Shown here piece by piece: positions 5,042-12,989 of a stretch of 64,000 nt of DNA. The first letter of the stretch is position 1. Each line of letters begins with the position of its first letter. The translations under genes were made by a program, and so were the position numbers. The stretch is taken from the IMG/VR virus record IMGVR_UViG_3300008111_000003. One strand, 5' to 3'. The notes below the pieces were generated by a model, which was not told the origin of the DNA, ran no database searches, and saw only the letters and a program-made list of their open reading frames with translations. The DNA is from a virus.

Positions 5042-5569
5042 ATGCCAGCTAAAAAATATTTTATAACTAAAGAATATTTAGAAGAACATTATACCAAACA
5101 AAAAAAGAGCACAACCACCATAGCAAAAGAATTAGGACTTAAATCCACAAATACGCTTAAAAGATTATTAAAAAAATACGATATACCCAACAATAATAAT
5201 AGGGCTGGTAGGCCAGTAAAAACCACACAAAAATTTGGTGAAATACACAAATCATATATCTGTACATTAAGATTACGAGCAAAAAGATTAGATTATGAAT
5301 TCAATTTAAATGGAAAATTTTTATGGGAATTATTTCTAAAACAAAATAGAAAATGTGCTTTATCTGGCATAGAAATAGGATTTCCTCAAGCCTGGGGCGT
5401 TAAAAGTAAAACAGATATTACTGCGTCTCTAGATAGAATAGATAGTAATAAAGGATATACAAAAGATAATGTGCAATGGGTACACAAGCATATAAACACT
5501 ATGAAAATGCATATGACAGATATGGAGTTTATAAGTATCTGTAAGAAAGTAGCGGAATACAACAAGTGA
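5042..5569 (+). CDS. Free-standing HNH/His-Me homing endonuclease with N-terminal HTH-like region
   Basis: KQNRKCALSG..SLDRIDSNKGYTKDNVQWVHKHINTMK; AAGGAG RBS. Confidence 0.75.
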   Translation: MPAKKYFITKEYLEEHYTKQKKSTTTIAKELGLKSTNTLKRLLKKYDIPNNNNRAGRPVKTTQKFGEIHKSYICTLRLRAKRLDYEFNLNGKFLWELFLKQNRKCALSGIEIGFPQAWGVKSKTDITASLDRIDSNKGYTKDNVQWVHKHINTMKMHMTDMEFISICKKVAEYNK

Positions 5570-6609
5570 TTATAACCTATCTTCGAAGTTCAAGTTTTAA
5601 CACACACTGTTTCTGTGCTCAACAGTATTTTCTTGAATATGTACTAGGCATTAGATCCCCATCAGGAATTAAGGCCGATAAGGGCACTATAGTACATAAA
5701 GCTTTAGAGATTTTAGCCTATATTAAGCTAACATTACAAAATAAAGAAAATATTTATACTGATGATATTGTTGGTCCTATTAATGTTCATGACTATGATT
5801 TAGACCGAATTATTGATGCTGTTTATCAATACTATACGTCTCAGTTTAAACATCACTCATGGTCGGCCAAAGATTTAAAAGATTGTCGTCTATGGGTCAA
5901 CAAAGCGATCACAGATCACAACGGAACCTTCGATCCACGCAATAGAAACATACTTCAACCAGAGCAACATTTTGATATAGTTATAGATAAACCTTGGGCC
6001 TATTATTCGTACAAAACACAATCAGGAATTTTAGATGGTAATTTGGCGATAAAAGGAACTATTGATCTTATTACGGAAGTGGACGAAAATACCATAGAAA
6101 TTGTTGACTGGAAAACTGGCCGCAGACTAGACTGGGCAACTGGTCAAGAAAAAACTTTGGAAAAACTTCAAAATGATCCTCAGTTAAGAATATACCACTA
6201 TGCTGTGCAAAAATTGTATCCGAAAATGGATCATATTATTTTTACCATCAATTTTATTAATGATGGCGGAGCATTTAGTGTTTGTTATGATAAGAGCGAT
6301 TTGCCAAAAACAGAAAATATGATTAGACAAAAGTTTGAAACCATACGAGATACCACAAGACCATCACTTAACAAAAGTTGGAAATGCACCAAATTATGTC
6401 ATTTTGGAAAAACCACTTTTGAGAATAGTCATATTCTACCCATCATAGAATATAGAGATAATCAAATATGTGCCAAAGATACTTTCATGACCAAGTGTGA
6501 ACAAATCAAACACGATATTGATCTGAAAGGCATTAACAATGTGATTGACCAACACACTTTTCCTGGATATACTGTTGGTAAGTACAAAGCACCCGGAAGC
6601 GCAGAATGA
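5566..6609 (+). CDS. PD-(D/E)XK (RecB/Cas4-like) nuclease
   Basis: GTIVHKALE, PEQHF, KGTIDLI..EIVDWKTG, QLRIY, Cys cluster (C..CTKLCHF..C). Confidence 0.8.
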   Translation: MIITYLRSSSFNTHCFCAQQYFLEYVLGIRSPSGIKADKGTIVHKALEILAYIKLTLQNKENIYTDDIVGPINVHDYDLDRIIDAVYQYYTSQFKHHSWSAKDLKDCRLWVNKAITDHNGTFDPRNRNILQPEQHFDIVIDKPWAYYSYKTQSGILDGNLAIKGTIDLITEVDENTIEIVDWKTGRRLDWATGQEKTLEKLQNDPQLRIYHYAVQKLYPKMDHIIFTINFINDGGAFSVCYDKSDLPKTENMIRQKFETIRDTTRPSLNKSWKCTKLCHFGKTTFENSHILPIIEYRDNQICAKDTFMTKCEQIKHDIDLKGINNVIDQHTFPGYTVGKYKAPGSAE

Positions 6610-6646
6610 ACACAACCCATTTCTTTTTCACCTCTTTTTTATTATC

Positions 6647-6654
6647 TGTGTATT
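6647..6654 (+). promoter_or_regulatory. Putative phage (late) promoter motif TGTGTATT
   Basis: GTGTA motif followed by TACTATGA, as at 8870. Confidence 0.5.
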
Positions 6655-6696
6655 CATACTATGAGTGATAATGCAAATTGAGTATAAGGAAATTTT

Positions 6697-7416
6697 ATGA
6701 GAGGCAGAAAAGTAGACAATGGTCGTTTTGTAAAATGTTACGATAATAAATTAACAAAAAAATATCTAGAAAAAGAATATCCAAAACAAGGAGCCTATAA
6801 AATAGCTAAAAGTTTGGGGATTCACGTTAAAACCGTATATAATTATTTAGGATATTACAAAATACCAAGAACTAGACAAGAAAATAATAAAATTAAAAAA
6901 GGCCAAATTTTTGGATTGTTAACTTTAGTAGAACCTGTTGGAAAATTAAAAAACGGCACAATTACATGGAAGTGTATGTGTGACTGCGGAAGCGAGACAA
7001 TAGTACCATCCTCTAGGATAAAAATAGGCAAGGTTAAAAGTTGTGGCTGTTTGAACAAAATTAGTGGCTCAAAAAGATGGAATTGGAAGGGGTATTGTGG
7101 TATTAGTGGAAGCAGATTTTGTGAGATTAGATTAAGAGCCAAAAAGAAAAAATGGGATTTCAACCTAACTCCAAAATTCTTATGGGAACTATTTCAACAA
7201 CAAAACAAGAGATGTGCTATAACTAATGAAATTATAGATTTGAATATTGATGGATCATTAGATAGGATAGACAGTTCAAAAGGATATGTAAAAAATAACG
7301 TTTGGTGGGTTAAAAAAGATATAAATAAGATGAAACTAGACTTTCCATTAAATTTGTTTATCGAATTATGTGAGAAGGTTGTAGCCAATAAGGAGAATAT
7401 AAGAAATGGGCGTTGA
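6697..7416 (+). CDS. Free-standing HNH/His-Me homing endonuclease
   Basis: WKCMCDCG..VKSCGCL zinc-binding module; QQNKRCAIT..SLDRIDSSKGYVKNNVWWVKKDINKMK; related to 5042-5569. Confidence 0.78.
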   Translation: MRGRKVDNGRFVKCYDNKLTKKYLEKEYPKQGAYKIAKSLGIHVKTVYNYLGYYKIPRTRQENNKIKKGQIFGLLTLVEPVGKLKNGTITWKCMCDCGSETIVPSSRIKIGKVKSCGCLNKISGSKRWNWKGYCGISGSRFCEIRLRAKKKKWDFNLTPKFLWELFQQQNKRCAITNEIIDLNIDGSLDRIDSSKGYVKNNVWWVKKDINKMKLDFPLNLFIELCEKVVANKENIRNGR

Positions 7417-7450
7417 GCAACGATATGTGCCGCTACACGTCCATTCCTAA
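7406..7450 (+). CDS. dnaE: DnaE N-terminal 14-codon mini-ORF (MGVEQRYVPLHVHS-stop), first PHP motif
   Basis: AAGGAG RBS at 7390-7395; YVPLHVHS is the canonical DnaE start and continues as MFSLLDG 10 nt later in the +1 frame. Confidence 0.75.
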   Translation: MGVEQRYVPLHVHS

Positions 7451-7457
7451 GTGAACT

Positions 7458-8843
7458 ATGTTTTCACTTTTGGATGGACTATCCAAACCAGAGCAAATAG
7501 CAGAAAGATGCAAAGAGATCGGAGCATCTGCTTGTGCGTTAACAGATCATGGTAACATAGCAGGAACCATCAAGTTTTATACTGCTATGAAAAAAGCTGG
7601 ACTAAAGCCTATACTTGGATGTGAACTTTACATTTGTAGTCAAAACCCAAAAATCAAAGAAAAAGATAACAAAAAACTAAGTCATTTTCTGGTATTGGCT
7701 AAGAATTATTCAGGATGGAGAAATCTTATCAAGATAGTTTCATCATCCAATAATCCAGAATATTATTATCATAAGCCGAGATTGGATTTACCAACACTAA
7801 AAGATCTTCATTCAGGGGATTTGATCGGAATAACTGGTCATCTTGGATCAACACTAGCAGATCAAATACTAGACGGGGATGCTCTTAGAGATGATTGGCA
7901 AAATATAGGAGTACAACATATATCTTATCTTAAGACTATATTTGGTGATCATTTGTTTTTGGAAGCTCAATTAATAGATAAAGATAATCTGCCAATCCAA
8001 GAAATCCTCACAAACTGCATCAGAAAATTGGGACAATTAACCAATACTAAAGTTATATGTACTCCTGATGCTCATTATTGTCGCAAAGAGGATGCTGTTG
8101 ATCAGCGAGTATTATTGTGCAACAATCTTAAGATTACATTCTCTGATATTAGTCGTAAAATCATAAACGATCAAGATATTCCTATGGGGTGCTTTTTTAC
8201 ATCAGATAATTATCATATTCCATCTCAGGAGGAAATGAAGAACATACACACAGAAGAAGAAATCAATAATACAAATTTTGTGTGTGATTTAGTGGAAGAA
8301 TATAACATACTAAGTAAACCTAAATTACCATTATTTAAATGTCCACCAAATTTCTCTCAGGATGAATATTTAAGAGAACTGTGTAGAAACGGATGGAGAG
8401 ATAAAATAGCAAATGTTGTACCTAAAGAAGATCAACAACCATACTTGGATCGTATCAAATACGAACTAGAGGTTTTACAGGGTGCTGGGCTGAGTAGTTA
8501 TTTTTTAATAGTACAAGATATTGTGAACTATGTTAAAAGAGAAGGATGGCTTCCGGGACCGGGACGAGGTTGTTTTATACCAGAAACAAGAGTTAAAATG
8601 GCTTCTGGTGAATTGATGCCTATCTATAATATAGAAATAGGAGATCAAGTAATAGATGCTTTTGGAAATAAACAAAGAGTCTATGATATAATGAGATATG
8701 AAATAGATGAAGAAATACTGGAAATAGAATTAGAAAATGGTAAAATCATAAGATGTACAAAAGATCATAGATTTTTAACACTAAATAGGGGTTGGGTTGA
8801 AGCCCAGTATCTATCAGAAAATGATGATTTGGCCAAAATATAA
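7458..8843 (+). CDS. dnaE: DNA polymerase III alpha (DnaE) part 1: PHP domain plus start of polymerase, fused to N-terminal split-intein half
   Basis: FSLLDG, ALTDHGN, PILGCE, TPDAHY, YFLIVQDIV, GPGRG followed by intein block A CFIPET. Confidence 0.92.
   Translation: MFSLLDGLSKPEQIAERCKEIGASACALTDHGNIAGTIKFYTAMKKAGLKPILGCELYICSQNPKIKEKDNKKLSHFLVLAKNYSGWRNLIKIVSSSNNPEYYYHKPRLDLPTLKDLHSGDLIGITGHLGSTLADQILDGDALRDDWQNIGVQHISYLKTIFGDHLFLEAQLIDKDNLPIQEILTNCIRKLGQLTNTKVICTPDAHYCRKEDAVDQRVLLCNNLKITFSDISRKIINDQDIPMGCFFTSDNYHIPSQEEMKNIHTEEEINNTNFVCDLVEEYNILSKPKLPLFKCPPNFSQDEYLRELCRNGWRDKIANVVPKEDQQPYLDRIKYELEVLQGAGLSSYFLIVQDIVNYVKREGWLPGPGRGCFIPETRVKMASGELMPIYNIEIGDQVIDAFGNKQRVYDIMRYEIDEEILEIELENGKIIRCTKDHRFLTLNRGWVEAQYLSENDDLAKI
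8571..8840 (+). mobile_element. Split intein N-fragment (90 aa)
   Basis: Begins at Cys after GPGRG; block A CFIPETRV, block B IRCTKDHRFLT..GWVEA..L; ends at TAATAA. Confidence 0.9.
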
Positions 8844-8845
8844 TA

Positions 8846-8877
8846 AGAACCTCTTCCTGGACCACTTTTGGTGTATC
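8846..8877. promoter_or_regulatory. Inverted copy of the intein-less homing site abutting a GGTGTATC promoter motif (putative operator)
   Basis: Reverse complement of 8846-8866 is AGT GGT CCA GGA AGA GGT TCT (SGPGRGS); GGTGTATC at 8870-8877. Confidence 0.55.
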
Positions 8878-8900
8878 CTACTATGAAAGGACAATCTTGT

Positions 8901-9719
8901 ATGGAATATATAGCATTTAAATCTTTACAAGACAATAATTTTGAATACAGGGGATTAAGCAATAAACCTATTAAAGACATATGTATAAAATGCAATAAAA
9001 CTTTTGAATACGCTAAACTTAAGAAATTTATTAGGAGCAGAGTAAACATCCCAAAAATATATTGGTGTCAATGTCAGAAATGTTTTTTGCGATATAGAAC
9101 TATTGATAATTCAGACTGGATAGAAAAAAATAGGAAAGCACAACTTATAGCGCAAAATAAAGAAGAACAAAAGAAAAAGAACGCGGAGGCAGTATCAAAA
9201 TCTTGGACAAGAACAAGAAAAAATAAAGCTTCTGAATATCTTAAAGAAAGATGGGTTAATGATGAGGCTTTTAAAAATAAGGCTACTCTTAATTTAACCA
9301 ATAATAGAAGATATAATTTTACAAACGGAATTGCTACTGGGGGTCTTAGAGGATTATATAACGATATATACTATGATAGTGCGCTAGAACTATCTTTTAT
9401 ATTGTGGTGTGAATACAATAGTATGCCGATTAAAAGATATGATCAAGATTCTATTAAGTATGTAGATGAAAATACTATCGAAAGAGAATATTTTCCTGAT
9501 TTTATTATCAATAACACAACTATTGTCGAAATAAAAGGAAAAGGAATTTGGTATAATCGACACTTTGAACGCAATAAATTAAAAATGATAGCAGCAAAGA
9601 CCAAATTTAATGCAAAGTATTGCATATATTACGACTGGGATGAACAAACAAAATTATTTTATCGAAAGGCTAGAAAATTACATCATGAAAATAAAAAGAA
9701 AAACGTCGCTATCATATAA
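8901..9719 (+). CDS. Free-standing endonuclease (TnsA-like PD-(D/E)XK C-domain) between split-intein halves
   Basis: YYDSALEL..IKY..YFPDFII..IVEIKG; N-terminal CxxC pairs and basic helical region; AAGGA RBS favours ATG 8901 over 8868. Confidence 0.75.
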   Translation: MEYIAFKSLQDNNFEYRGLSNKPIKDICIKCNKTFEYAKLKKFIRSRVNIPKIYWCQCQKCFLRYRTIDNSDWIEKNRKAQLIAQNKEEQKKKNAEAVSKSWTRTRKNKASEYLKERWVNDEAFKNKATLNLTNNRRYNFTNGIATGGLRGLYNDIYYDSALELSFILWCEYNSMPIKRYDQDSIKYVDENTIEREYFPDFIINNTTIVEIKGKGIWYNRHFERNKLKMIAAKTKFNAKYCIYYDWDEQTKLFYRKARKLHHENKKKNVAII

Positions 9720-9789
9720 GGGTACTGTGTGCGATTTGTCTGTAACCAATACAGCATCTTATAATGTTGAAGGGATTGGAGTACACAAT
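9685..9789 (+). mobile_element. Split intein C-fragment (35 aa)
   Basis: Basic N-terminus, block F VCDLSV, block G YNVEGIGVHN followed by Ser+1. Confidence 0.9.
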
Positions 9790-10518
9790 AGTGCGGCGGG
9801 GTGTTTGGTATCCTATCTCATCGGCATAACTAATATTGATCCTATAAAATATAGTCTGCTTTTTGAAAGATTCTATAATGAGGGTCGTAACACAGCAGAC
9901 AATATTTCCATGCCAGATATTGATGTAGATATACCTATCGAAAAGCGAGAAATGGTTATTCAATATATCAAAGACAAATATGGTTCGGACAAAGTTTCTC
10001 AAATGGTTACTTTCAATACGATCAAGGGTAGGGGCGCACTAAAAGACGTATTAAGAGTATATGGTAATATTACATTTGAAGAAATGAATAAGATAACCAA
10101 AAATATCCCCGATGAGTCTAAGATTGCCGATGATCTTCAAGAGATGAAAGAAGAAACTGGCGAAGCATCCATCGTTCGATGGGCTTTGGAAAACGATAAT
10201 GATAAGCTTAAAGAATGGTGCTTTATTGATGAAAAAGGACAACTACAAGGCCTCTTGTCAAAAAGGTTTGAACAGGCTATTAGACTAGAGGGCACCAAGT
10301 CAAATCAGTCCAAACATGCTGCTGGTATTGCTATCAGTAGTGAACCATTAAATGAATTATGTCCTATGGTTTATGATAGTAAGAATGATCAGTTAATAGC
10401 AGGAATGGAGATGCAAGACTTGGAAAGCATAGGAATTATTAAGTTTGATATTCTTGGTGTTGCTCTTCTTGATAAAGTGATGACAATCAGAGACCTTTTA
10501 AATGAAGGAGTTCAATAA
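9685..10518 (+). CDS. dnaE: DnaE part 2: C-terminal split-intein half fused to polymerase catalytic core
   Basis: MKIKRK..VHN then SAAGCLVSYLIGIT..DPI..LLFERF..MPDIDVD..KHAAG..KFDILG; start set at Met26 of the tracked ORF. Confidence 0.9.
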   Translation: MKIKRKTSLSYKGTVCDLSVTNTASYNVEGIGVHNSAAGCLVSYLIGITNIDPIKYSLLFERFYNEGRNTADNISMPDIDVDIPIEKREMVIQYIKDKYGSDKVSQMVTFNTIKGRGALKDVLRVYGNITFEEMNKITKNIPDESKIADDLQEMKEETGEASIVRWALENDNDKLKEWCFIDEKGQLQGLLSKRFEQAIRLEGTKSNQSKHAAGIAISSEPLNELCPMVYDSKNDQLIAGMEMQDLESIGIIKFDILGVALLDKVMTIRDLLNEGVQ

Positions 10519-10703
10519 TGATGGTTAAGTTTAAAGATGTGGCTGAAAATACATTATTTAGCAAAGATGGTGTGGAATTCAAAAAAATACAACTAGTAAA
10601 AATTAGTTGTTGTAAAACAATAAATGCTATACAAGTATTAGATCCTAGAAATAGAGTGCTTTTTAATCAAGAAGATGAAGTAGAAGTGAATGATCAACTA
10701 TAA
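10518..10703 (+). CDS. Small hypothetical protein
   Basis: AAGGAG RBS; overlaps flanking genes. Confidence 0.55.
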   Translation: MMVKFKDVAENTLFSKDGVEFKKIQLVKISCCKTINAIQVLDPRNRVLFNQEDEVEVNDQL

Positions 10704-11385
10704 TAAGATTTGTGTTTTTGATTTTGAGACAGACGGATCGGATCCATCAGAATGCAGTCCTGTACAGATTGCTGCTATTATGATAGATCCATTAAATTTG
10801 GACATTATACCCGGCTCAGAGTTCAATATAAACTTTAGGCCAGAAGTTTTGGAAAACAACGAAAACTACAAATACGAAACAGATATATTAGATTTTCATT
10901 CAAAGGTTAAAGGGTGTTCTCAAGACGAGGTTTTAGCCTCGTGGTATAAATATCCTAAACAGGATCATTCTTGGAAATTATTCACAGCCTATTTGGATAA
11001 ATACCATTCACGAGCAACTAAAAAAAGTCAATTTTCTGCACCTATTGCTGCTGGTTATAATATACATAGATTTGATCTACATATCATAGACAGATTAAGC
11101 AAAAAGTATGGTAATTTGAACAAAGAAAAAAGAACAGATTTATTTTATCCTAGAGACACTATAGATGCTATGCAATTAATGTTTTATTGGTTTGAGCATA
11201 GTAGTGATCTTAAAAGTTATTCGTTAGATACTGTGAGAGATTATCTGGGAATTAGCAAAGATGGTGCTCACGATGCTCTAAAAGATGTTCAGGATACAGC
11301 AGCAATAATAATTAGGTTTTTAAAGTTACATCGTAATTTGGGACAAAAGGTAAAGTTTAAGAATTCTTTTGCAAATCAGGCATGA
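10690..11385 (+). CDS. dnaQ: DEDDh 3'-5' exonuclease (DnaQ/epsilon-like)
   Basis: ExoI VFDFETDG, ExoII GYNIHRFD, ExoIII AHDALKDV. Confidence 0.88.
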   Translation: MINYNKICVFDFETDGSDPSECSPVQIAAIMIDPLNLDIIPGSEFNINFRPEVLENNENYKYETDILDFHSKVKGCSQDEVLASWYKYPKQDHSWKLFTAYLDKYHSRATKKSQFSAPIAAGYNIHRFDLHIIDRLSKKYGNLNKEKRTDLFYPRDTIDAMQLMFYWFEHSSDLKSYSLDTVRDYLGISKDGAHDALKDVQDTAAIIIRFLKLHRNLGQKVKFKNSFANQA

Positions 11386-12989
11386 CTAAAAAATATCAAT
11401 ATCCTTGTGGATGTTCTTTTGAGTTAAATGATAACAATGGATTAGTTTTTGATCCAGATATTAACTCTATAAATTTGGACTGTTCCAGAACATGGGGTCT
11501 AATTTCGGATGGTAATACTAAGGGTTGTTTTCAATTAGAATCTCGTCTAGGACGATCCATAGCCAAAAAACTTAAGCCAGAAAATATAGAGCAGCTTTCT
11601 GCACTAATTGCTGTGTTAAGACCCGGCTCATTAGAGGCTATTAGAGATGGTAAAAGTGTAACCAATCATTATATCGATAAAAAGAATGGTCAAGAAACAC
11701 TAGATAACTTTCATCCCGTTCTTGAGCCAATCCTAAATTCAACATACGGAGAGATGATATATCAAGAACAAGCAATGGAAATTGCTAAGATAGTTGCTGG
11801 TTTTAATTTGCGAGAAGCAGATATGTTAAGAAAAGCTATTGGTAAGAAAAAACCAGAAGAAATGGCAAAGGTTAAGTCAAAGTTTTTAGAAGGATCATCA
11901 AAACTGAATATCTTAAGCACAAATGAGGCAGAACAGGTGTTTGGTTGGATTGAAAAAAGTCAAAGATATTCTTTCAATAAGTCCCATTCTGTTAGTTATG
12001 CTATTAATGCGTACTTATCAGCATATGCCAAAGCACATTTTCCAAAAATATTTTTTGCATCATATCTCAGATTTGCCAAAGATAAAAAAGATCCTCAAGC
12101 AGAGATAAAAGAATTGGTACAAAATGCTAATGAAATGGATATTACTGTTCATACTCCTGATATTAGAAATCTTAATGAGTTCTTTATATTGAAGAACGAT
12201 AAGATATATTTTGGTTTAACAGATATTAAGGGTGTGGGCAAATCGGTATTTGATAAGCTTAGAGGAATATCTTTGAATGTTAAATTTGATTCATCTAATT
12301 GGCTTCAGTTTTTATTCTTAGTTTTGAATAGAATTAATTCTACAGCAGCCAAAGCTTTGATCCAAAGCGGGGCGCTTAGTTTTATACCAATAACCAGAAG
12401 TAAGATGTTGTATGAATATAATCTTGTTAGCACTTTAACAGCCAAAGAGATTGAGCATATTTGTAATAACTTGACCAAATTCACCACACTAAAGGAATGT
12501 TTGGGATTTGTGATGGGTTTACCTAGAGTTAATAAGAATAGACAAAATTCTATCAGAGATTCTTTGTATGCTTTAGATTTTCCACCACATTCATTGGATG
12601 ATAGTCCGGAGTGGATAGCAGACTGCGAAGATGCCTTACTTGGATGCTCTATTACTTGTTCCAAGCTGGATATGTATGATATTAGTATGACCAATATAAC
12701 ATGTAGAGAATTAAAGAATACGTCTATGAAAGATAATCTTATTCTTGGCGGAGAAATAGATAATATCAATATTGTAAAGACCAAAAGTGGTAAAAATCCC
12801 GGTCAAGAAATGGCTTTTGTTACAATGACAGATCAAACTGGTTGTGTTGACTCTATAGTATTTTTTCCTGAACAATACAAAACTTTCAAGAATTTACTAT
12901 TTTTGGGCAATATTGTTATTGTGAAAGGATCTAAGTCCAAGAACGGAGATGGTATCATAGTAGAAAAGGGTTATATAGCAAAAACTTGA
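11382..12989 (+). CDS. dnaE: DnaE part 3: fingers, HhH and OB-fold C-terminal portion
   Basis: GCFQLES, LRPG, IYQEQAM, ADMLRKAIGKKK, YSFNKSHSVSYA, FGLTDIKGVG, MAFVTMTD. Confidence 0.92.
   Translation: MTKKYQYPCGCSFELNDNNGLVFDPDINSINLDCSRTWGLISDGNTKGCFQLESRLGRSIAKKLKPENIEQLSALIAVLRPGSLEAIRDGKSVTNHYIDKKNGQETLDNFHPVLEPILNSTYGEMIYQEQAMEIAKIVAGFNLREADMLRKAIGKKKPEEMAKVKSKFLEGSSKLNILSTNEAEQVFGWIEKSQRYSFNKSHSVSYAINAYLSAYAKAHFPKIFFASYLRFAKDKKDPQAEIKELVQNANEMDITVHTPDIRNLNEFFILKNDKIYFGLTDIKGVGKSVFDKLRGISLNVKFDSSNWLQFLFLVLNRINSTAAKALIQSGALSFIPITRSKMLYEYNLVSTLTAKEIEHICNNLTKFTTLKECLGFVMGLPRVNKNRQNSIRDSLYALDFPPHSLDDSPEWIADCEDALLGCSITCSKLDMYDISMTNITCRELKNTSMKDNLILGGEIDNINIVKTKSGKNPGQEMAFVTMTDQTGCVDSIVFFPEQYKTFKNLLFLGNIVIVKGSKSKNGDGIIVEKGYIAKT

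Follow-up and report, generated by a model that had tools for sequence, protein, structure and literature searches.

We analysed a window of 64,000 nucleotides (nt) of viral DNA (IMG/VR record IMGVR_UViG_3300008111_000003) that carries the replication module of an uncultured phage, in which Pfam and profile annotation identifies a RecA-like protein, DnaB, a primase, a deoxynucleoside monophosphate (dNMP) kinase and nucleases. In this module dnaE, the gene for DNA polymerase III (Pol III) alpha, is interrupted at its 5′ end by 10 nt that contain stop codons, and an HNH-family endonuclease gene lies directly upstream. Here ‘mini-ORF’ refers to the short open reading frame (ORF) before the interruption, ‘gap’ to the interrupting nucleotides and ‘DnaE body’ to the coding sequence after them. 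The terms ‘take-off’, ‘landing’ and ‘resume’ refer to the triplets at which a ribosome hopping over the gap would leave the message, pair with it again and continue decoding. No transfer RNA (tRNA) genes were found in the window. The interrupted frame is composed of the following features.

7390–7395, plus strand: Shine-Dalgarno sequence AAGGAG, inside the HNH coding sequence and serving the mini-ORF
7406–7447, plus strand: mini-ORF of 14 codons encoding MGVEQRYVPLHVHS, the MGVEQR extension followed by YVPLHVHS
7445–7447, plus strand: proposed take-off codon TCC (Ser), which is TCN in 45 of 45 gapped variants
7448–7457, plus strand: 10-nt coding gap TAAGTGAACT (TAA-GTGAACT), with TAA 7448–7450 in the incoming frame and TGA 7452–7454 in the outgoing frame
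7455–7457, plus strand: proposed landing triplet ACT, the last three bases of the gap
7458–8570, plus strand: DnaE body, comprising the PHP domain from MFSLLDG on and the start of the palm, with ATG 7458 as the proposed resume codon

The Shine-Dalgarno sequence stands 8–10 nt before the ATG and is kept in nearly all variants of the family described below (alignment A2). MGVEQR is a six-residue N-terminal extension specific to the element, and YVPLHVHS replaces the first strand of the parental PHP domain, which bears the HxH metal ligands. Beyond the gap, ATG 7458 opens a 461-residue ORF containing the PHP domain (Pfam, 3e-31), the start of Pol III alpha and the N part of an intein; across 7458–12989, Pfam matches to PHP, palm, fingers, HhH and OB follow one another in DnaE / Pol III alpha order. 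The best solved-structure match of the DnaE body is Taq Pol III alpha (2HPI, 6e-38). Because this alignment begins only at 2HPI residue 16, the first strand with the HxH ligands is supplied by the mini-ORF.

The original prediction, made from the letters of the window, had placed a 10-nt stop-containing gap in the PHP motif of DnaE and stated that its exact removal restores the motif. The layout is as it described: removal of 7448–7457 yields YVPLHVHS-MFSLLDG, as in 67 gapless relatives, with no residue lost or gained, and since those relatives read through the motif unbroken, the insert is exactly 10 nt. It was also right to exclude simple readthrough and a +1 shift, because with TAA in the incoming frame and TGA in the outgoing frame neither can join the two parts. 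Among GenBank phages no DNA match to the region or the cassette, near or distant, was found, only DnaE relatives of at most 34% identity.

How common the interruption is was seen in a gap-blind sample, the 80 best matches to a PHP-domain alignment, which held 67 gapless and 13 gapped sequences. The motif MNYIPLH[CV]HS-[MHT]xSLLDG is unbroken in those 67 and in the four closest IMG/VR relatives by DnaE body (L001–L004). The latter read MNYIPLH[CV]HS[MH]FSLLDG or MKKY[TI]PLHVHSMYSLLDG without interruption, and their dnaE start codon overlaps the stop codon of an upstream PD-(D/E)XK exonuclease gene (GAATGAAC...). No HNH gene precedes dnaE in these four.

Three pattern scans and protein-based scans of IMG/VR and JGI contigs brought together 45 distinct gapped dnaE 5′ ends from well over 100 contigs. 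Gaps of 7 and 8 nt occur in two variants each, 9 nt in nine, 10 nt in 13, 11 nt in 18 and 12 nt in one, so that all three frames are represented. Every gap begins with a stop codon (TAA 28, TAG 16, TGA 1) and every take-off codon is a TCN serine codon (TCT 27, TCC 16, TCG 1, TCA 1); gapless relatives use AGY as well at this position. The resume codon is CAT in 22 variants, CAC in 8, ATG in 12 and GAA in 3, that is, other than ATG in 33 of 45. His and Met are found there in gapless relatives, and Glu in gapless dnaE 5′ ends from the pattern scans. Removing the gap restores HVHS-[H/M/E][Y/F/D]SLLDG exactly in all 45. Between TCT and CAT the gaps proceed in single-base steps, as in TAAGTG-TCT (9 nt), TAAGTGG-TCT (10 nt) and TAAGTGAG-TCT (11 nt). 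This architecture, its conservation and its independence of frame are thus direct observations.

Conventional initiation sites are often missing from the variants. ATG, GTG and TTG are all absent from the dnaE frame up to and including the resume codon in 17 of 45, and no start codon lies near the resume point in 21. Two variants, L206/L238 (TCC-TAGGTGATCT-CAC) and L208, combine the lack of a start codon with a blocked shifted frame and a gap length indivisible by three; as far as their sequences tell, there is no conventional decoding route for them.

The landing triplet is TCN in 25 variants, ACT in 10, GCT in 7 and GCC, TTT and TGA in one each. It is NCY in 18 of 45, which covers most of the 8- to 10-nt gap forms; TCN is the triplet in all forms of 11 and 12 nt and in L165 (7 nt), where TCG pairs exactly with TCG. 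Hairpin pairing does not explain the TCN triplets, because in F-type variants they sit in the hairpin loop. The 7-nt form L165/L167/L169 (TCG-TAAATCG-CAT) combines an exact codon match with absence of the gap hairpin. The start codon of its mini-ORF may be TTG or a more distant upstream ATG, and in mechanism this form may stand apart from the others.

On both sides of the gap the encoded residues are held. The mini-ORF residues Y, P, L, H, V, H and S are constant across the 45 variants and their codons vary (Pro CCG/CCT/CCC, Leu CTA/CTT/TTA/CTG/TTG, His CAC/CAT, Tyr two), while variation at the resume codon is limited to CAT/CAC exchange and to Met or Glu. Among gapped lineages as divergent as 56–78% identity, PHP residues H31, E56, H76, H128, D204 and H206 are invariant, and in lineages without any HNH gene the downstream ORFs are intact for ~610 residues. 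Both halves therefore appear to be translated. No form that keeps the N-terminal extension but lacks the gap was found in two pattern scans, whose collections are mostly DNA.

Two hairpins flank the take-off site TCY-T, and a third helix competes with one of them.

7406–7444, plus strand: 5′ hairpin, in which ATGGGCGT (7406–7413) pairs with ACGTCCAT (7437–7444), enclosing nearly the whole mini-ORF
7449–7469, plus strand: gap hairpin of 7 bp, AAGTGAA (7449–7455) with TTCACTT (7463–7469), loop CTATGTT
7439–7479, plus strand: alternative outer helix, GTCCATTC (7439–7446) with GGATGGAC (7472–7479), from the RNAalifold consensus

The gap hairpin was part of the original prediction, with seven pairs and the second ATG in the loop, and was recovered as such; it folds at −4.5 kcal/mol in the window (z score −3.3 vs shuffles), and its loop takes in the resume codon together with a portion of the landing triplet. 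Of the 45 variants, 44 fold this hairpin, with a family mean of −5.1 kcal/mol (z −3.9), and its consensus arms are AAGTGRR[T], starting at the second base of the stop codon, and [A]YYCACTT, in the x-Ser-Leu codons. The 5′ hairpin, in which the mini-ORF start (ATGGRCRTG) pairs with the His-Val-His codons (CAYGTCCAT), reaches −12.7 kcal/mol in the window and −17.5 kcal/mol on average in the family (z −5.3 vs shuffles).

Pairing was counted in alignment A2 (29 sequences) and compared with counts for partners slid by 1–3 columns. Paired cells amount to 96.5% for both hairpins, 98% for the 5′ hairpin and 94.5% for the gap hairpin, against 32–53% for slid partners, the hairpins having been derived from the same sequences as those tested. 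Pair 30-56 of the 5′ hairpin is GC in 18 sequences, AU in 8 and GU in 3, and pair 73-83 of the gap hairpin is GC in 12 and AU in 4. The latter changes in three contexts, namely M-F (window vs L005), H-F (L059 vs L068) and H-Y (L091 vs L100). The two-sided changes fall at synonymous sites of His, Phe and Tyr codons. RNAalifold alone preferred the outer helix over the 5′ hairpin, and both were then assessed by pair counts. The two are mutually exclusive, and the outer helix is nearly invariant, so its variation is uninformative either way. The six-residue extension, M[DG][VM]xxx, seems from the alignment to owe its form to base pairing with the conserved codons, since its residues vary and the pairing persists.

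No Rfam family matches 6300–7800 at an E-value of 1 or better, and a group I or II intron or another known RNA family was rejected on this ground. Many gaps are complementary to the 3′ tail of 16S ribosomal RNA (family mean −6.1 vs −2.9 kcal/mol for shuffles). This pairing is clear in TAG variants (L206, AGGUGAUC, −12.7 kcal/mol) and weak in the window (AAGUGAAC, −3.9 kcal/mol, no better than 21% of shuffles). As a lead, the gap may be an internal Shine-Dalgarno-like element such as that of bacteriophage T4 gene 60.

The gap belongs to a larger element, the parts of which are given below.

6606–6611, plus strand: ATGAAC, relic of the parental dnaE start, overlapping the TGA stop codon of the PD-(D/E)XK exonuclease gene and forming the left junction
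6612–6696, plus strand: 5′ spacer of the element, before the HNH gene; rightward of 6611, homology to gapless relatives is absent
6697–7416, plus strand: HNH-family endonuclease gene of 239 codons, whose last 11 nt (7406–7416) overlap the mini-ORF out of frame
7306–7483, plus strand: right part of the cassette, a tract near-identical to contig L024 (177 of 178 identical)

At the left junction the window reads GCAGAATGAAC|ACAACCC, where gapless relatives have GCAGAATGAACTATATACC, and the junction of L024 is identical to that of the window. In L024 nearly the entire HNH gene is deleted, and past 7483 its identity to the window drops to ~74% (DNA), being 0.70 over the next 600 nt. From this collapse, the cassette ends ~26 nt past the gap and moves between diverged phages, a mobility seen directly in the comparison. 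On these sequences the element at ~6612–7483 is a conserved mobile cassette. An assembly artefact was rejected, as the junction recurs unchanged in the independent contig L024 and other metagenomes supplied another 44 distinct variants. The idea that GTGAACTAT (7451–7459) is a relic of an ancestral start ATGAACTAT was also dropped, the true relic being ATGAAC at 6606–6611.

The protein encoded at 6697–7416, presumed from its sequence to be a homing endonuclease, matches the HNH/endonuclease VII families 3322, 374, 1035 and 3118 of PHROG (2e-20 to 5e-13) and no Pfam family at an E-value of 0.001 or better. Homologues of 56–74% identity occupy the same position in L005, L006, L021, L091 and L265. 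Beside the mini-ORF, a full-length HNH gene (56–100% identity) is found in 7 variants, C-terminal remnants of 103 down to 27 residues in 7, and nothing detectable in ~30. Such traces are what the decay of a fixed homing endonuclease usually leaves, and the gap outlives the nuclease.

It had been proposed that a stop-initiated, hairpin-containing gap is linked to the adjacent HNH gene, and the locus agrees, the HNH gene overlapping the mini-ORF and the hairpin co-varying with coding sequence. As for co-occurrence of the gap and the gene among relatives, the link stands as a historical one and is not strict: most gapped relatives have lost the HNH gene, and HNH-positive L134 is gapless. In L134, an HNH homologue of 53% identity runs right up to the start codon of a dnaE without gap (MNYIPLHCHS-MLSLLDG); the insertion point is the same, and the N-terminal extension and hairpins are absent. 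Since L134 pairs an HNH gene with a gapless dnaE, nuclease and gap are not strictly tied.

The gap probably shields its carrier from the carrier's own nuclease, by analogy with MobA of T4, and the related suggestion that the insert destroys the HNH target is plausible on the same analogy. In L205/L264, which have a gapless dnaE with an ordinary N-terminus, the bases that flank the cassette are uninterrupted (CATGTCCATTCT|GAATACTCACTTTTGGATGGACT), and this sequence is a candidate for the natural target site of the nuclease.

We infer from these patterns that the two parts are joined by a programmed hop, and the efficiency of the hop and the roles of hairpins and nuclease are likewise inferred. 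The HNH element has inserted at the 5′ end of dnaE, replacing the first eight codons after Met-Asn with its own copy, made up of the six-residue extension, YVPLHVHS and the 10-nt gap opening with TAA. Ribosomes would initiate at ATG 7406 and, on arriving at TCC, would have TAA in the A site. The 14-residue peptidyl-tRNA(Ser) would then release the TCC codon, the messenger RNA (mRNA) would slip forward by 10 nt, and the tRNA would re-pair at ACT with two of three bases, so that decoding resumes at ATG 7458. The product would be one polypeptide with the HxH...D metal site intact, for which the predicted tryptic junction peptide is YVPLHVHSMFSLLDGLSK. By analogy with the take-off stem-loop of gene 60, the gap hairpin, which starts in the stop codon, may hinder termination and favour the slip, while the 5′ hairpin may fold again once the ribosome has passed, or may regulate initiation.

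We hold it to be fairly probable that the locus carries such a hop within the cassette of a homing endonuclease, which would make it a short counterpart of T4 gene 60/MobA located in a different gene. The hop is favoured because gap lengths are frame-independent and many variants lack a restart codon, and, going by the sequences, it is the sole mechanism that fits all variants. Hopping, RNA excision and reinitiation had been offered together as ways in which the gap is tolerated; frame independence, absent start codons and Ser landing triplets in 25 of 45 favour the first, and the other two rank lower. Translational hopping is a very rare way of reading genes, and here it appears the most likely mechanism.

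Several points weigh against the hop. The original prediction had cautioned that take-off TCC and landing ACT are unmatched, which holds for the window: ACT is not a Ser codon and matches TCC at two of three bases, a weaker match than in most relatives. The first true downstream Ser codon is TCA 7464, and landing there would delete three residues. Its other caution, that ATG 7458 is usable for reinitiation, also holds for the window, where this codon lies 7 nt past the stop in the hairpin loop, a good setting for termination-reinitiation; in the family, an in-frame ATG or GTG is at or near the resume codon in 24 of 45. The gene 60 signal needs a nascent chain long enough to span the tunnel. 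With a chain of 14 residues at take-off, a nascent-peptide signal of the gene 60 type is absent here and a tunnel-anchoring one cannot operate, and such a chain is at risk of peptidyl-tRNA drop-off. Because the arms of the gap hairpin lie inside the ribosome footprint at take-off, a role for it is conjecture. The covariation comprises few independent events in related sequences, and as evidence from sequence it is supportive, short of conclusive. Moreover, the RNase T-type exonuclease gene at 10690–11385 could make PHP activity less critical.

The most serious rival, in the window, is termination at TAA 7448 with restart at ATG 7458, given the start codon there and an ACT landing triplet. It would give a DnaE without its first strand, the 14-residue peptide being discarded or supplying HxH in trans. 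The placing of the ATG resume codon in the hairpin loop suits this course, as does the strong ribosome-binding site, which serves the mini-ORF alone so that coupling is needed; ATG is the resume codon in 12 variants, and an in-frame GTG stands just past the stop in another count of 12. However, the same architecture is found in the 21 variants without a nearby start codon, 17 of which have none at all. Met is merely the commonest residue at the resume position in gapless relatives, and GTG is fixed by hairpin pairing and in frame at some gap lengths only. The body alone, beginning at 2HPI residue 16, would also miss two metal ligands, whereas the other ligands are invariant. On balance reinitiation seems unlikely, though it deserves to be taken seriously. 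We regard as less likely still a tolerated scar, in which the N-terminal PHP strand and its activity are dispensable, low-level restart suffices and conservation reflects recent descent of the cassette. The RNase T-like exonuclease gene inside the dnaE cluster speaks for it, as do the low number of covariation events and the horizontal spread of the cassette (window vs L024, 99% identical), which makes some conservation simply recent. Yet mini-ORF residues are held through many synonymous changes and hairpins through two-sided changes, ORFs of ~610 residues are intact where the HNH gene is wholly lost, and no extension-bearing variant is without gap or mini-ORF.

Excision at the RNA level, with the hairpin directing mRNA cleavage and religation so that the frame is restored before translation, would likewise be frame-independent, and the hairpin does bracket the gap. 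We know of no bacterial or phage system that removes 7–12 nt in this way, no Rfam match was obtained, and no gapless extension-bearing sequence appeared in the two pattern scans of mostly DNA collections; Ser-like landing triplets and an obligatory stop codon would have no role. We consider excision very improbable. A +1 or −1 frameshift, stop readthrough or a variant genetic code has the least chance of all. The −1 path is open in the 11-nt variants, and gaps of 9 and 12 nt keep the frame. However, TAA blocks the incoming frame of the window and TGA 7452 the +1 frame, each route adds 2–4 residues inside the HxH...D motif, and close relatives differ by single-base steps with gap lengths spanning three frames. 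A variant code is further opposed by the occurrence of all three stop codons in gaps and by the long standard ORFs in the rest of the window. This group was rejected on the frame blocks and the spread of gap lengths.

The programmed hop has its closest precedent in T4, where the gene 60 bypass lies within the MobA homing-endonuclease element and P-site re-pairing is reported to have some leeway (Manning and Atkins, bioRxiv 10.1101/2022.08.31.505936). In both systems the upstream nuclease gene overlaps, out of frame, the N-terminal extension of the downstream ORF, and the parental codons that were deleted are replaced by a homologous segment from the element, placed before the gap. A stop codon directly follows the take-off codon, with a stem-loop beginning there. 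In both, too, the insert ends near the landing site, the nuclease decays or vanishes while the gap stays, and the element strikes an essential replication enzyme at a conserved metal-binding motif. There are also marked differences. The host gene is dnaE here and a topoisomerase gene there; the element is at the 5′ end and the nuclease gene does not split dnaE into two proteins; and the gap is 7–12 nt instead of 50 (20 in one clade). At 13–20 residues the nascent chain is too short for a tunnel signal. The take-off hairpin holds the landing triplet in its loop, landing is often near-cognate, and the start codon is enclosed by a 5′ hairpin that is both strong and conserved. BLASTP shows no similarity between the HNH protein and gp60.1, the MobA remnant of T4, and homology to MobA was rejected on this comparison, which involved the remnant alone. 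A full-text literature search found no paper describing the dnaE gap, and the text of Manning and Atkins (bioRxiv 10.1101/2022.08.31.505936) does not mention a polymerase.

In the terminase gene of Streptomyces phage Hau3, 10-nt bypasses flanked by RNA structure have been proposed, with mass-spectrometry support for bypass in Escherichia coli with a stop codon replacing the trigger codon (Antonov et al. 2023, PMC10732093). The likeness lies in a short insert of ~10 nt in an essential phage gene, flanked by RNA structure. However, the trigger there is a rare UUA codon tied to host development and an endonuclease cassette is absent, whereas here it is a stop codon in a mobile element. Frame-independent re-pairing of a P-site tRNA that passes over a stop or slow codon to a site a few bases on is shared with the non-programmed ‘stop-hops’ of E. 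coli. Those events, associated with the names of Weiss (1987) and of Gallant and Lindsley, are reportedly inefficient errors; the dnaE element, by contrast, is conserved, structured and located in a phage replicase gene. An endonuclease gene that disrupts an essential gene whose function is rescued afterwards is also known from MobE in Aeh1 nrdA and from genes fractured by split inteins (Dassa 2009, PMC2677866). Rescue there is at the protein level, by assembly or trans-splicing, which the 14-residue piece and the many variants without a restart codon do not fit.

The polymerase cluster of the window is split at other points as well. The 461-residue ORF ends with ~90 residues of an intein N part (GRG|CFIPETRV start, TKDH; Pfam Intein_splicing and Hint), and is followed by a 283-residue endonuclease-like ORF at 8868–9719 (PHROG 945, weak Pfam Phage_endo_I) and by the remainder of the Pol III alpha domain at 9610–10518. 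From this order, the palm of dnaE appears to be fractured by a split intein (8571–10518). L010, L021, L041 and L053, with downstream ORFs of 453–478 residues, may share the fracture; most relatives have one ORF of ~610 residues. The polymerase is also divided between palm and fingers, where a 61-residue ORF and the RNase T/DnaQ-like exonuclease gene (10690–11385) lie between 9610–10518 and the fingers-HhH-OB ORF at 11382–12989. This split seems native to the clade, because L005 and L006 show the same order. A second HNH-type ORF (5042–5569, 175 residues) stands before the PD-(D/E)XK exonuclease gene; its product matches the PHROG families hit by the 6697–7416 protein and shares 47% identity with that protein's C-terminal half (tblastn). 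With it, selfish genes of nuclease type in the replication module number at least three.

For a long time a single studied case, T4 gene 60, has stood for efficient programmed bypass, together with yeast mitochondrial elements and one proposed phage case. On our assessment the odds lean slightly towards the dnaE cassettes being a second, independently evolved family of endonuclease-borne programmed bypass cassettes, a minimal ‘stop-hop’ device of 7–12 nt. The element is invisible in annotations because gene callers will start dnaE past the gap, at ATG 7458 in the window, and so drop the HxH ligands. The 45 natural variants are a ready mutational series in gap length, stop codon, landing triplet and hairpin pairs.

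If the hop is real, the parts of the device would be a Ser take-off codon, a stop codon, a hairpin loop presenting the landing site and a 5′ hairpin, and it would work without a long nascent-peptide signal. A hop programmable with so little sequence and a 14-residue chain would test exit-tunnel-based models. The cassette would move from phage to phage with ~90 nt of replacement coding sequence, so that a selfish nuclease gene could interrupt an essential replicase in its most conserved motif without any penalty to the protein sequence, and homing endonucleases would have recruited hopping more than once.

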